Shown here: positions 2,989 to 58,200 of the stretch, in pieces
Position numbering within the stretch: position 1 is the stretch's first letter
Layout: each line of letters opens with the position of its first letter
From: Octopus sinensis
Lineage: Eukaryota
Direction of reading: 5' to 3'
Assembly: GCF_006345805.1 (NCBI RefSeq)
Contig: NC_043009.1
Coordinates: forward strand, 40,734,001-40,798,000
Length of the DNA stretch: 64,000 nt
Position numbers and translations under genes: made by a program
Notes under the pieces: generated by a model
Seen by the model: the letters and a program-made list of their open reading frames with translations, nothing else
What the model was told of the DNA's origin: nothing
Databases searched by the model: none

Positions 2989-3175
2989 ATACACACACAC
3001 ACACACACACACACATATATATATATATATATATAATGAGGGTGATAAATTGAATATTAATTTAATTAACAATTTAAAACCAGTAGCATAGCATATAGAA
3101 GAATCTGAAAATCATCAGAAAAATTGCATGTAATACGCTATATATATATATATATATATTATATATATATATCTA

Positions 3176-3505
3176 TATATATAATATAATTCGAGACAAA
3201 ACCACTATTTTAAAACCAAACAAGGAAAGACTTAATCAATACATAAAATTTTAATATAAATATTTATTTAATTTATTATTTTATTTATTTATTTATTTTT
3301 TATTTTTTATTTATTTATTTATTTTATTATTTATTTTTATTTAATTTATATTAAAATTTTATGTATTGATTAAGTCTTTCCTTGTTTGGTTTTAAAATAG
3401 TGGTTTTGTCTCGAATTATATTATATAATATTTTACTATAAAATTGGATTTAACCCTAAATCTGATTTTTCCCTGTAATTTTGGATTCATTCCCTAATAT
3501 TTTTA
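3176..3505. mobile_element. Fold-back Penelope-like tail element between TA arrays
   Basis: Inverted arms ~3176-3261 and ~3344-3427. The termini (GAGACAAAACCACTAT; TTTTCCCTGTAA..TTTGGA..CCCTAATATT) recur at 59990-60253. Confidence 0.6.
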
Positions 3506-4332
3506 TATATATAATATATATAATATATGTAGATAGATAGATAGTTAATAGACACATGCATACTATATACTATATATATATATATATATATATATATATA
3601 TATATATGCACACATACATACACGCACACACGAACATGCACACGTACACACACACATATGTATATGTACATACTATATGTGTGTGCGTATATGCGTTGCA
3701 TAGATATGACGTTCGTATAGAAAAACAGGAAACCGAAATCGCAAAATTACGATGAATATTTTAGAGGCCAAACAAACTGTTTAGTTCTTGAAACCAAACT
3801 TAATTAGCTGTTTACCTAGATTAAGTGACATAAACATATATCACCGTTTACTATCCTAATTATTTCTCTCTGCAAAACTTGTTTTCATCTCCCTTCTCGT
3901 CTTCTACTTTTCCTTTTCCTTGTTTGTTCTTCTATTCCTTTATTTACTTATTTTTATCGTTTTCATTCTTCCTTCGCTACTCTCCTTATCAACACATATC
4001 TCTCGTTCTTGCTTTTTTCCAGTTTCCTTTTTTCGTATATCAATCTCATGTGACTCCTCCATTCAGCTGCTTTCGTTTTTTTTCAGCAACAACATTTATT
4101 ATACATGTCACATGTGTTTTTGTTAACGGGCTGCTTTTTATATAATTTACAACTAGTTATAACTCTTTATAATAATTTGCCAATTAATTTAAGACGAATA
4201 ACAAACATCTCGCAATGATTCATTTACATATAAGGAACTGCAAAGAAATATTTGGTGACAAAAAAAAAAAAATTATGCTTCCTATCATGCCAAAACACTA
4301 TTGTCATTCTCACCAGTTAAGCCTTGTAGATA

Positions 4333-4817
4333 ATCATCATCATCATCATCATCACCATCACCACCATCATCATCATCATCATCATTATCATCATCATTAC
4401 CATCATCATCATCATCACCATCCTCCTCCTCCTCCTCCTCCTCATCATCATCATCATCATCATCTTCATCATCATCTTCATCATCATTATCATCATCATT
4501 ACCATCATCATCACCATCATCATCATCATCACCATCATCATCACCATCACCATCACCACCCTCATCATCATCATCATTATCATCATCATCACCATCATCA
4601 TCATCATCACCATCATAATCACCATCACCATCATCACCATCATCATCATCATCATCATCATCATCATCATCTTCATCATCATTATAATCATCATCACCAT
4701 CATCATCACCATCACCATCATCACCATCATCATCACCATCACCATCATCACCATCATAATCACCATCACCATCCTCCTCTTCATCATCATCATCATCATC
4801 ATCAACAACAACAACAA
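4333..4817. repeat. (CAT/CAC)n microsatellite
   Basis: Directly visible. It is the source of the poly-His and poly-Met ORFs. Confidence 0.95.
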
Positions 4818-4849
4818 CGTTGCTTTTCTTTTAACTCAGATTTTGTTGG

Positions 4850-5330
4850 AACTCCTGGAGTCTTGCATGCGTAGCAGGGCTTGTTACCGGTGACCTATGG
4901 TACCATGTTATCAGTTCCTTTTAACTATCAAATACTTTCCTGATGATCCTGGCTGTACCAAGGAGGACAAACATTTTGTAACCGTTCTATTGGGCACTCT
5001 ATTCCCATTTTGCTTTATATCCCATTTGAATTTTTTTTATACTATCCCCAAGGGCCCAACAGTAATTGGCATTATGTTCACCTACATTTTCCACAGTCGA
5101 GCTATTTCGTGTTTATGAGGCTTGTATTTTCACCTTCTTTCTTGACTATTCGTGGGTCAAATGGACACGCAACATCAATTACAGAGCACATGTGGTTCAC
5201 CTTGTCCACCACCACCACTAGTGCCAGCTTATTGTGCTCAGTCAACTGGTTTGTTTCGATTGTGAAAACCCACAAGATTTTGCAGGTCTCCGAATTCGTC
5301 ATTCTTTGTGGTTTGTTCTCATACTACGTC
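4850..5330 (-). mobile_element. R4/Dong-clade LINE remnant, restriction-like endonuclease (RLE) region
   Basis: CKILWVFTIETNQLTEHNKLALVVVVDKVNHMCSVIDVACPFDPRIVKKE matches the KILWDF..HNRPDIVVVDK..IDVACPFD RLE signature, in decayed form. The 3' end abuts a trinucleotide array. Confidence 0.85.
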
Positions 5331-5717
5331 TCGCCTCTCTCTAGCCCCTCTCTCTAGACTTTTCGATACCATATGACAAAGGCAAGAAATTCTGTCTTCT
5401 CTGCAATTCTGAGCTATTTTTCATTATTTTTTCTAAAAATACTCTAGTAAACACGGTTATAGAGCGAGCATACATATGTAAGCATTGGCAAAAACACATT
5501 TAGTGCATATAAGTAGTCTCTATCATTATATATAATTTAAACTTTAATTTCCTTTATATTTAACATTCACTATTAATATCCCTACTCTTTCTGTTAGCTA
5601 CTTATGACGTTATATCATATAACGTTTTTTTAAACAATATTAATAGCGTTCTGTCTATCGCTATACAAATCCATCATTTTTTGCTAAAATGTCGTATTGA
5701 CGAGTTTCGTTTTTTTC

Positions 5718-5801
5718 ACTTTCCCGAAGAGAAGATTGCATTGTTTATACCATTTATTCTTTTGAATTGTCAGTGGAATTTTCGAAACATGTGTCGAAAG
5801 T
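5718..5801 (+). ncRNA. Type I hammerhead ribozyme, one core substitution (U4>C)
   Basis: Stem I ACTTTC(5718-23)/GAAAGT(5796-801). Core CCGAAGA 5724-30. Stem II GAAGATT..CATTG/CAGTG..AATTTTC. GAAA 5784-87. Near-palindromic stem III CATGTG. UH = TC 5794-95. Confidence 0.75.
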
Positions 5802-6139
5802 AAAATATTTGTTTACACCTGCGTTAACTCCATTTTTATTCATATTATTCAAATATTCACGTAAACACGAAGTTTCTACCTTTATAAACAAGGAGTTACA
5901 ACATCTTTACTTGTGAGATTTTTGCTGCCCTGGTAACTATTTATTTATTTATCCGTGTTAATTGTTAACAAGGTAAAAATACACTCATCTATTTATATAT
6001 ATATATATATATACAAATTATAAAAATAAAAAATAATACAGTACAGTATTGTTTCTACTTCGCGGATTTTCACCCGTCGCGGGGTGTTTTGTAACGTAGC
6101 ACCCACAATAGTCGAGGGATTACTGTACCGCAGCGGGTT

Positions 6140-6490
6140 CCTAAGTTCGATATGCACGCAGTCTTCCACACTTATCAGTTCGCTTCCTCCAGTTTTTCTT
6201 TTCATGTATAGGCGATCTGTGTCCTCACGCGGATGATGGACCCTATGCATTTTTAAGGGCTTTCTTGTCTTCCTGTACAACACCTTAAGCTCATCCGCTG
6301 TCCACTTCAGAATTCTAGCGCCAAACCGAACCACTGCGACTGCGCGAGAGATTATTGCCGAAATTATGTTTCTGGCGTTCAAACTTTGAATTCAATATTT
6401 TTCTCATTTGCAAACGATAAACTCTTTGTCTTTTCTTTCATATGCTTAATTCCATTTCTTCAAGTATCCTCATGTATTTGTATCCGGATT
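6140..6490 (-). mobile_element. R4/Dong-clade LINE remnant, RT thumb region (same element as 4850-5330)
   Basis: NARNIISAIISRAVAVVRFGARILKWTADELKVLYRKTRK..HHPREDTDRLYMKRKTGGSELISVEDC matches the R4/Dong W..EL..DRKTRK..HHP..D.DRLY..R..GGRGL motif. Confidence 0.85.
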
Positions 6491-56436: not shown

Positions 56437-56561
56437 CCCTGCTCTGATGACGGAGGCTCGTCGTACCCACTGTTAATTGCATCCGTACGGCTGCATATTG
56501 TGATGAACTAAATCTACCAACATTATTATGGATTACCGAGCCCCCAGAAACACCTGTTGGG
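56437..56561 (+). ncRNA. Long-stem-II hammerhead variant
   Basis: CTGATGA 56444-50. GGAGGCTCG/CGAGCCCCC closes a 96-nt stem II region. GAAA 56547-50. CACCTG-TT-GGG. Confidence 0.62.
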
Positions 56562-56762
56562 TTTACAACACCTTTCTTCCACTACTTTAATTTTCTCTGT
56601 TGTTTGCACTTTATGTAAGTTGGACCTATTAATGTAAATATTTATATGTTTATACGTTAAAATTCATTATCTGAAAGTTTCTACCTTTTGCTTTCTCTCG
56701 TTTTGCATATATATATATATATATATATATATATAGAGAGAGAGAGAGAGAGAGAGAGGAGA

Positions 56763-56862
56763 NNNNNNNNNNNNNNNNNNNNNNNNNNNNNNNNNNNNNN
56801 NNNNNNNNNNNNNNNNNNNNNNNNNNNNNNNNNNNNNNNNNNNNNNNNNNNNNNNNNNNNNN
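56763..56862. other. Assembly gap (100 N)
   Basis: Run of N after (GA)n. Confidence 1.
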
Positions 56863-57306
56863 GGCGTCAACAGCATTCATAATAGAAGACCTCACACCCT
56901 TCTCACGATTAAGAACCATGGGAAGAATTTCTCTCGTGGCGTGCCCCTTTTATGGCGAAATATGTATTTATTCAAACATTGGAATGTTTGTATTAAAATG
57001 TGCTATTTTTAAATTTTAAATAATATTTTACTTACTTTTTACGCTTTTGGTTTTCTGTCTATAGCATTTACTATCATGTACTGTCTACAATAAGAATTTT
57101 TGCCCTCTAAAAGCTTCGAAATTGTCGAGTATTTTGGGAAGAAAACTTAGTCTATGTTATAAACCTCCTTTACGAGATGATAAAGTGTCTCTTACGATTT
57201 CTATTTCAAGCCACTTTCATTGACTTAACAGTTATTGCTCTTAAAAACGGCATGGATTTCACAATCTCCAAAATATTTGCTCATTTAATATTTATGATAC
57301 AATGAA

Positions 57307-57540
57307 GGCGGCGAACTGGCAGAAACGTTAGCACGCTGGGCGTAATGCCTACCGATATTTAGTCTGCCGCTACGCTCTGAGTTCAAATTCCACCGATGTC
57401 GACTTTGCCTTTTATCCTTTCGGGGTCGATTAAATAAGTACCAGTTACGCACTGGGGTCGATATAATCGACTTAATCTGTTTGTCTGTCCTTGTTTGTCC
57501 TCTCTGTGTTTAGCTCCTTGTGGGTAGTAAAGAAATAGGT
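57307..57540 (+). mobile_element. SINE family B
   Basis: Family B consensus. Confidence 0.9.
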
Positions 57541-57649
57541 ATGTCTGTAGTCGCAAGGAATGGACGAAAGCGCTAATTAAAGAATTATCCAAAATTTTGA
57601 CTGGTTTTTTCTTCTTAATCTACAAAAATCTGTACATCACTTCTGTACA

Positions 57650-57935
57650 TCCCAGTACTTATTCTATCGGTGTATTTTGCCGAACCGCTAAGTTACGGGG
57701 ACGCAAACACACCAGCATCGATTGTCAAGCGATGTTGGGGGGACAAACATATACACATACATATATATACACATATATACGACGGGCTTCTTTCAGGTTC
57801 CGTCTACCAAATCCACTCACAAGGCTTTGGTCGGCCCGAGGCTATAGTAGAAGACACTTGCCCAAGGTGCCACGCAGTGGGACTGAACTCGGAACTATGT
57901 GGTTGTTAAACAAGCTACTTACCACACAGCCACTC
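57650..57935 (-). mobile_element. SINE family A (3' part missing)
   Basis: Reverse complement of the family A consensus. Confidence 0.88.
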
Positions 57936-57944
57936 ATATATATA

Positions 57945-58200
57945 AACTTATAAACAGTTTTTCTATGCTAATATTCTCAGAACAGACTTTAAATCGTCAA
58001 TTTCCACATTTCACTATCCTGTTGTATAATGAAATGTGGAAATTGACGATTTAAAGTCTGTTATCAGCATATTGGCATAGAAAAACTTTTTCTTTTGCCC
58101 TTGTTTATAAGTTGTTTATACTTTTAAACTTCTTTATAGGTATTTTAATATGCCGCCACTTTTGATGAAATTTTTTCTGAAAATTTTTTTATCCTATATA
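57945..58200. mobile_element. Fold-back element ending in the conserved 3' hairpin motif
   Basis: Arms ~57945-58013 and ~58030-58113. Motif at 58150-58196. Confidence 0.65.

Follow-up and report, generated by a model that had tools for sequence, protein, structure and literature searches.

Motif-bearing repeats in the window

The window, that is the whole 64-kb stretch of DNA analysed, contains seven loci for which an earlier note had claimed a common 3' RNA motif made of a conserved core, a hairpin and CU. Checking the letters of the window shows that all seven strings are present where they were reported, and searches of the window's own genome assigned each locus to a family of repeats. 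Five loci carry the motif and give their names to families A (39895), B (34705), C (58150), D (3037) and E (10124); the claim does not hold for 17828 and 5923. Core, hairpin and CU are conserved among the copies of families A-E, and the motif lies at the end of the element, followed by (TA)n. A covariance model trained on such families, with A-E themselves in the training set, gives seven matches in the window up to E=2 (one each for A, C, D and E, three for B) and none at 17828 or 5923. A post-hoc descriptor finds 5 matches in the window versus 0.02 in 100 shuffles. The site at 17828..17867 (+) is a chance look-alike in the mutated interior of an old, decayed repeat: in the copies found in the genome (72-83% identity for most, 93% for one short match), the core is absent and the position is not terminal. 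The site at 5923..5955 (+) belongs to the 3' UTR or 3' end of a Hydra-type PLE, and the change that creates its hairpin is absent from the other 19 of 20 copies among the matches listed.

In families A-E, the motif is the final third of a predicted fold of ~170-200 nt. Its 5' part is predicted to comprise, in order, the 5' strand of helix Pb, hairpin Hx, a U-rich segment, the 5' strand of helix Pa, hairpin H0, CU and an AU run (site S1); the 3' part comprises H1, a U-rich segment, the 3' strands of Pa and Pb, H2, CU and a second AU run (site S2). According to this model, the motif core is not single-stranded and forms the 3' side of long-range helices.

In family B, the left arm (minus strand) has H1, the U-rich linker, the 3' strands of Pa and Pb, H2 and CU at 34009..34069, and ends at S2 against a TA array, as seen from the covariance-model match, the fold and the ends. 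On the same strand, H0 with its CU, hence site S1, is read through (34118..34141), and the Pa 5' strand that pairs with the motif core (34144..34151), the Pb 5' strand with the start of Hx (34165..34177) and a type I-like minimal hammerhead (34270..34297) are found, the latter 245 nt 5' of the motif at 34052(-). The covariance model also detects the motif of the preceding tandem unit (34501..34564, minus strand; unit of ~496 nt) and that of the inverted right arm (34687..34747, plus strand). This right arm continues with a hammerhead (34949..34976) and with Pb 5', Pa 5', H0 and CU (35073..35135), where it ends at S1 against a TA array. In family A, the left arm carries the motif at 39891..39974 (-; covariance-model match) and terminates at S2, and the inverted right arm (plus strand) has the hammerhead at 40076..40135 and the Pa 5' strand, H0 and CU at 40254..40317, stopping at S1 with a TA array from 40318. 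Family C comprises an inverted left arm ending near S1 (57945..58015, minus strand, approximate boundaries), Pb 5', Hx, Pa 5', H0 and CU up to S1 (58034..58101, plus strand) and the motif with its S2 end (58129..58200, plus strand), Pa being weakened by a change in this copy. The family D copy (3034..3114, minus strand) has the motif and an S2 end and is truncated 5' at a TA array at 3139. The family E copy (10120..10236, minus strand) has the motif (S2) and H0/S1 and is truncated 5' at a tetranucleotide array; a separate E fragment with Pa 5' and H0 ends at S1 (9978..10040, minus strand, approximate boundaries).

More generally, the motif-bearing elements are non-coding, hammerhead-bearing, (TA)n-inserted repeats with units of ~500 nt. 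A pattern search finds a type I hammerhead core with its stems in families A-E, I and J and in H relatives; Rfam does not call these family hammerheads. The hammerhead had been placed 60-220 nt 5' of the motif in the same orientation. The orientation is correct for each family; the distance is in fact 230-285 nt. Within the window, an intact hammerhead lies 5' on the motif's own strand only for the mirror copy at 34052(-), since at 39895 it is on the opposite strand, in the inverted arm, and the 3037, 10124 and 58150 copies are truncated short of theirs. Among 65 held-out matches, a callable sense hammerhead is retained in only 8. Family B forms a closed 496-nt unit in tandem, with the head-to-tail joint seen in 3 of 4 runs (contigs), and family D shows read-through from motif to hammerhead.

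The motif-bearing repeats are probably non-LTR retrozymes, or non-autonomous PLE derivatives. In the portions available of the published descriptions, non-LTR retrozymes resemble the elements here: they are non-coding and AT-rich, are found both dispersed and in tandem, carry a type I-like hammerhead and are proposed to be non-autonomous derivatives of PLEs (Cervera & de la Pena, 2020, PMC7229834; Li et al., bioRxiv 2026.07.22.740005). Compared with retrozymes as described in these portions, a conserved non-hammerhead fold, fixed ends and two-armed insertions are particular to the present elements.

Covariation in the predicted fold

Thousands of small non-coding mobile elements of this genome terminate in one conserved RNA fold. 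A whole-genome search with the core alone gives 5592+1932 matches, the forward list (5592) including overlapping starts, versus 11+11 with a reversed control. Through helix Pa, the core pairs with a strand located 70-100 nt upstream, with compensatory changes, and two look-alike modules, each consisting of a hairpin, CU and an AU-rich run, are thereby linked. When partners were swapped among 19 representatives, 18 paired better with their own partner strand than with those of other families (p=1.5e-4), and both strands are changed at 5 of the 7 Pa positions. In a MAFFT alignment of 19 rows, in which Pa 5' is misplaced in 2, 93% of the pairing cells are paired and double changes occur at 7 of 12 pairs; neither the cell count nor the score was reached by any of 500 shuffles, and slid controls pair at no more than 57%. 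Of 65 held-out matches to the core alone, 27 have a perfect 7-bp Pa located at -70 to -96 (controls: 1.4 when shuffled, 1-2 in control windows), and H2 closes in 49 of the 65 versus 5.4 when shuffled. The covariation noticed previously at the hairpin base is borne out, the second pair being G-C in 9, A-U in 8 and G-U in 2 representatives. When copies are folded singly, Pa, H0 and H2 appear in the majority of the intact ones, and the family B copy of the window folds as in the proposed scheme (z=-2.6). On the other hand, RNAalifold found H2 only and missed Pa, and Pb was not significant in the swap test (13/19, p=0.08).

It may be asked whether all this reflects diverged copies of one ancestor under no selection for pairing, the complementarity being the relic of an old inversion. 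Several families are visibly alike (A/I, C/J, D and its relatives), and the shuffle controls take no account of kinship among families. However, the double changes at Pa occur across families that differ in the length and sequence of loops and linkers, and the rule governing the ends (see below) is kept in every family. This explanation is therefore regarded as very improbable.

The idea that the motif is a second structured RNA of the ribozyme kind found no support. At the gathering score, Rfam, whose models include HDV-like, twister and pistol ribozymes, gives no match in the window or in 5 intact loci; the 150 weak matches listed are to miRNA-type and other models on simple repeats and palindromes. 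HDV-like ribozymes have the topology of a nested double pseudoknot; such a ribozyme was rejected, the helices found here being nested and not crossed. Helitron 3' ends have a subterminal hairpin and one fixed terminus, without inverted arms. They were also rejected, because the present elements bear a hammerhead and inverted arms and have two termini that scatter over 0-20 nt. The fold was not found described in the openly available papers searched.

Two insertion ends within one fold

In 8 of 8 families examined, the 3' ends of the elements form two clusters. The TA array mostly begins 0-20 nt past CU, and S1 lies ~100 nt upstream of S2, within the same fold. Thus, the motif does mark a 3' end, as proposed earlier, in the case of S2; it is not the sole end, S1 being used as well. 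The insertions show 5' truncation, an inverted copy, a one-sided tail and a (TA)n target, which are PLE-type features.

After de-duplication, 55 of 55 two-armed insertions combine an S1 arm with an S2 arm. Two of these rows (L007) are a local duplicate, leaving 54 independent insertions. A first tally, duplicates included, had given 55 S1+S2, 3 S2+borderline and 1 S1+S1. For the final one, exact duplicates were dropped, no TA array was allowed between arms, which removed the sole S1+S1 case (L033), and the S1 bin was shifted to -75..-20, which took in the borderline cases. It should also be noted that many loci were retrieved with motif-containing queries, so that one arm was fixed as S2.

Could S1 and S2 be ends of processed RNAs, made by a second self-cleaving or nuclease-guiding RNA, with the RT starting at free 3' ends? 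The fold is compact, conserved and multi-helical, with invariant bases, and the ends cluster directly 3' of a hairpin and CU, which would fit such a scheme. It is nevertheless unlikely: the offsets scatter across 0-20 nt and do not define one bond, both sites are read through in tandem copies, Rfam shows no ribozyme in the window or the 5 intact loci, and mixed cleaved RNAs would not impose one S1 and one S2 end on each insertion.

The reach of the arms in the 5' direction, compared in 51 insertions, is greater for the S1 arm in 27 and for the S2 arm in 15, and similar in 9. Since the longer arm is S1 in some insertions and S2 in others, the two arms appear to be primed independently. This bears on the possibility that snap-back or self-priming, for instance on an antisense template, generates the inverted arms, the fold only marking where synthesis stops. 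Such a mechanism was put forward for Adineta Penelope on the basis of junction palindromes (PMC3846280, in the part available). Here, the near-symmetric junctions of 9/51 insertions agree with it, as does the greater likeness of arms within an insertion (0.953 versus 0.935 between insertions; 32/40), for which gene conversion could be another source. But snap-back of an S2-primed cDNA would require the S2 arm always to be the longer, some arms barely overlap, and the hammerhead together with the G-U bias of Pa indicates a sense RNA. We consider this origin quite improbable.

The bias in question is that, read on the hammerhead strand, Pa has 8 G-U mispairs and 0 A-C mispairs. It also weighs against an explanation at the DNA stage, in which a GIY-YIG endonuclease would resolve a folded cDNA or a cruciform and trim one arm to S1, because the cDNA is antisense. 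Such trimming would produce the strict one-tail asymmetry, and folding probabilities and energies show no preference for the sense strand. In the available parts of the sources, the tail of PLEs is ascribed to endonuclease resolution (PMC8557442) and that of Penelope is required for cleavage by the endonuclease (cited in PMC11167929). The ends of the Poseidon tail, however, match measured RT starts (PMC11167929). Overall, a DNA-stage origin of S1 is rather unlikely.

A possible role in priming by a PLE reverse transcriptase

The presence of ends at both Pa-joined modules, combined with the S1+S2 constitution of 55/55 insertions, designates the motif as a structured PLE 'tail' lying between two sites where the RT likely starts. 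The earlier proposal of a 3'-end element for a PLE RT is sustained by the conserved, covarying 3'-terminal structure, the orientation of the hammerhead and the PLE-like character of the elements; recognition by the RT is what we infer as the best reading. With a probability of about 0.6, the fold is a landing pad on which a PLE RT-endonuclease, supplied in trans, carries out programmed twin priming. The motif-bearing repeat would be transcribed and the transcript processed by the hammerhead into unit-length or circular RNA. The RT, possibly as a dimer, would bind the two look-alike modules, and the palindromic TA 3' ends of the target would anneal to the AU runs. Two priming events would follow, one per site, which use both nicked strands of the (TA)n target, and two independently truncated cDNAs would be joined head-to-head. 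The partner enzyme is likely a TA-targeting PLE of the Neptune or Hydra type. More tentatively, the pseudo-two-fold RNA may dock a PLE RT-endonuclease dimer with one start site per subunit, resulting in double asymmetric TPRT. If so, the tail and the inverted repeats of PLEs would both be explained by a dimer-docking RNA.

The closest data are those on Poseidon, cited here from the portions available (Frangieh et al., 2024, PMC11167929). Two internal sites next to each other, which delimit the tail, serve as starts for its RT, which extends both target strands and is predicted to dimerise. As in the present elements, the two ends of Poseidon_Ac lie 3' of a hammerhead and bound an optional extension, and both strands of an AT-rich target are used. 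The tail is 30-40 nt long in Poseidon_Ac versus ~100 nt here. Two observations are at odds with the landing-pad reading: Poseidon starts are alike on both strands in vitro, and they lie in an AC-rich stem-loop without homology to the target, whereas the ends here follow a hairpin, CU and an AU run. Relative to Poseidon_Ac as described in these portions, a covarying long-range helix joining both sites, a strict one-S1/one-S2 rule and the lack of an ORF distinguish the present elements. Similarly, in the available part of Craig et al. (2021, PMC8557442), the PLE tail is often one-sided and Neptune, Hydra and Naiad favour (TA)n; Neptune- and Hydra-clade PLEs share with the elements studied here the (TA)n target, partial tandems, an inverted 5'-truncated copy and a tail at one end.

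Among the loci scanned in the genome, no autonomous PLE was found whose own 3' end carries the fold. The fold occurs in non-autonomous units; the autonomous PLEs of Neptune or Hydra type that were examined lack it and have different 3' ends, two Neptune-type families showing short tails (~35-45 nt) that are likewise devoid of it. No ORF for RT and GIY-YIG is present within the motif-bearing elements. A PLE protein match on the same strand without intervening TA was obtained at 3 of 151 motif-bearing loci, namely one chimera, one fragment and one low-complexity match. The chimera was considered as an autonomous parent (L358/L328) and rejected: direct fusion of the fold to the Neptune ORF occurs in 1/30 copies, in the other 29 the ORF extends upstream or the copy is truncated at this point, and this Neptune-type element has its own 3' end, lacking the fold. 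The Hydra-type loci L191-L240 and the Neptune-type loci L241-L270 and L358-L441 were likewise rejected as carriers; apart from L198 and weak matches, the model matches inspected there lie on the other strand or past a TA array. In the available part of the PMC8557442 supplement, visual inspection did not reveal the motif at the 3' end of any of five cephalopod Naiad consensus sequences or of a Hydra one, and six short core words gave five matches there, all in apparently coding sequence.

PLEs are the sister group of telomerase RT, and it has long been asked how they choose their template and why an inverted copy and a tail on one side accompany their insertions. If the more tentative dimer-docking reading is true, the fold would be a portable cis element by which a telomerase-like RT could be loaded with any cargo RNA. 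In the available portion of the in vitro study, two PLE start sites were mapped without a conserved RNA structure (PMC11167929); the many minimal parasite families described here offer a covarying fold that holds both sites and obey a strict pairing rule. The fold supplies a defined ~200-nt substrate open to exact compensatory-mutation tests, and a sequence-structure signature by which thousands of unclassified repeats of this genome could be annotated.

The two-armed insertions also invite comparison with LINE-1 twin priming, in which primers from the two target strands lead to an inverted insertion and the second priming site is random and internal. In the present elements, by contrast, the second site is fixed, inside an RNA fold, and the arms usually overlap.

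A 3' motif shared by five window families of non-coding elements

An earlier note on this DNA had placed a short RNA motif, an AUGC-N-CYACU core followed by a hairpin (H2) and CU, at seven loci. All seven strings are present, but the motif is genuine at only five of them. Among the genome copies fetched (20-30 per locus, seven loci), core, H2 and then CU are kept across copies of families A (39895, minus strand), B (34705, plus), C (58150, plus), D (3037, minus) and E (10124, minus), and in all five the element stops at the motif, with (TA)n adjoining. The locus at 17828 (plus) was rejected: its family has a different core, and the sequence continues on both flanks. 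Mostly 72-83% identical, this family is old and has decayed reading frames on the opposite strand; 17828 is a chance look-alike. The locus at 5923 (plus) was rejected as well: its hairpin needs a change that, of the 20 copies shown, only the one in the window has. Protein remnants of Hydra-type Penelope-like elements (PLEs) adjoin this family in 11 of 20 loci, and 5923 is a 3' UTR of another kind. A covariance model trained on motif families from this genome, window families included, matched A, C, D and E once each and B three times in the window, leaving 17828 and 5923 unmatched. No Rfam family reached its gathering score within the 64-kb window.

The host genome is large (2.7 Gb) and microsatellite-rich. 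A search pattern that specified nothing beyond the core and the four initial bases of H2 gave 5592 genome matches in the forward list, which includes overlapping starts, plus 1932 in the other, versus 11 + 11 for the reversed pattern used as control. In a held-out set of 65 pattern matches (63 loci, one chromosome arm, some in families already in the model), H2 closes in 49 versus 5.4 expected, and 33 of these 49 have TA repeats within about 45 nt. The covariance model found two matches in 200 kb of arbitrary DNA, which suggests a density of about 10 per Mb, a very rough figure from two matches. Family B sequence is also present in sequencing runs under six organism labels.

The carriers are non-coding, with units about 500 nt long, and their hammerhead precedes the motif by 230-285 nt in the same orientation. 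Family B is a closed 496-nt unit without ORF, of which tandem copies were found. Apart from stray PLE protein matches, no ORFs were found beside the motif units across 151 motif-bearing loci. Together with its closed unit, this suggests that family B is copied as a whole. Only 8/65 held-out matches keep a callable hammerhead, because the copies are 5'-truncated, and many copies have an inverted second arm. Both traits are described in PMC8557442 as marks of PLE-made insertions. The motif elements also fit non-LTR retrozymes (PMC7229834; bioRxiv 2026.07.22.740005).

A fold extending upstream of the core

The motif was correctly proposed to be a structured RNA, but its extent was understated, as the fold reaches further upstream. 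The core is preceded by a U-rich linker and a short hairpin, H1, and these by a second hairpin, H0, which is G-C closed and, like H2, has CU and then an AU-rich run after it. The first seven core bases pair with the strand just 5' of H0, forming helix Pa. In a swap test, the own-family strand fits better than those of other families in 18 of 19 natural representatives (p=1.5e-4), among which Pa swaps C-G/U-A, G-C/A-U and U-A/C-G at 5/7 positions. In a MAFFT alignment, Pa and the H2 base pair in 93% of cells, versus at most 57% in slid controls that ignore relatedness; double changes, again with relatedness ignored, occur in 7 of their 12 pairs. A perfect Pa lies at -70 to -96 in 27/65 held-out matches (1.4 when shuffled). 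That such a fold is a neutral relic seems highly improbable.

For most intact copies, single-sequence folding recovers Pa together with H0 and H2. The window B copy is predicted to fold exactly in this way (z=-2.6), and the window C copy, which has a Pa-weakening change, only partly; RNAalifold recovered H2 alone and missed Pa. The remainder of the core is predicted to form a second helix, Pb, with a mean pairing probability of 0.55; it did not pass the swap test (13/19 representatives). Folding energy shows no preference for either strand. Pa mispairs on the hammerhead strand comprise 8 G-U versus 0 A-C, and from these and the hammerhead orientation we infer the RNA strand. Subscription papers and repeat databases aside, the fold has neither an Rfam match nor a description in the literature searched. 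The element class and the PLE tail have been described before. What appears new is the covarying fold with its two modules, along with the strict pairing of 3' ends reported below.

Two 3' ends and their possible origin

In all 8 families examined, the 3' ends followed by TA form two clusters separated by about 100 nt, with a scatter of 0-20 nt; S1 lies after H0-CU, and S2 lies after H2-CU. It is unlikely that RNA processing creates these two ends. One S1 arm and one S2 arm are found in 55/55 de-duplicated two-armed insertions, a set from which one first-pass S1+S1 case, with a TA array between its arms, was removed, in which two rows are one local duplicate, and many of whose loci were picked via a motif-containing query. 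Window insertions B, A and C obey this rule. Resolution of a DNA intermediate by an endonuclease is likewise an unlikely source of the arrangement.

PMC11167929 reports that the reverse transcriptase (RT) of Poseidon_Ac starts at two internal sites between which the tail lies and that synthesis proceeds on both target strands, and it predicts a dimer. By analogy, it can be proposed, with a probability of about 0.6, that S1 and S2 are RT start sites of this kind and that the 3' motif is a structured tail. Helix Pa would hold two modules of similar make-up, in each of which a hairpin, a U-rich linker and a helix strand are followed by another hairpin, CU and an AU run, and each nicked strand of the palindromic (TA)n would prime at one of them. 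Self-priming, proposed in PMC3846280, is considered improbable here. Of 51 insertions, 27 have an S1 arm that extends further 5' than the S2 arm, 15 show the opposite and 9 have equal arms; thus, the S1 arm was not produced from S2 cDNA by snap-back. Arm similarity is 0.953 within and 0.935 between insertions (within higher in 32/40), which either a single source transcript or gene conversion would be expected to produce.

Candidate partners and other window features

TA-targeting Hydra-type and Neptune-type PLEs are abundant in the genome, the former with the linker of the published Hydra alignment. The fold was absent from the 3' end of all elements of both types examined. In one of 30 copies (L358:2350-2445), a motif unit directly adjoins a 5'-truncated copy of a Neptune element, with no TA in between; this single case may be an RT template jump and hints at Neptune as partner. 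A very young Neptune-type family (L241-L270, L360, L361; 97-98% protein identity, open frames of at most 850 aa) has 2-3 alternative 3' ends, and no canonical hammerhead was seen in its 3' UTR. In a second Neptune-type family (L434, L437-L440), the hammerhead core is degenerate, and in the tail of about 35 nt a small hairpin precedes CU and an AU run, possibly a distant analogue of the S2 module. A 919-aa open frame (L221:2113-4869) is chimeric, joining a C-terminal Neptune part to a Hydra-type RT-EN.

In the window, a Hydra-type GIY-YIG ORF remnant (60802-61281, minus) and, on the other strand, a hammerhead-like sequence (~61370, plus) are arranged as in an inverted PLE insertion. The stretch at ~5380-5992 (plus) is the 3' end of a young Hydra-type PLE family (95-97% identical, thousands of first-look candidates), whose terminus seems to be formed by another long hairpin. 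A non-LTR RT-region fragment at 5993-6391 (minus), presumably R4/Dong-like, had no Pfam match. Other long palindromic repeats (7416-7900, 31837-32039, ~3190-3450) are probably two-armed insertions of further families. Hammerhead-like cores without a link to the motif occur at 51482-51521 and 38550-38581 (both minus), and an abundant dispersed SINE-like family at 13790-14156, 45928-46018 and 59327-59552.
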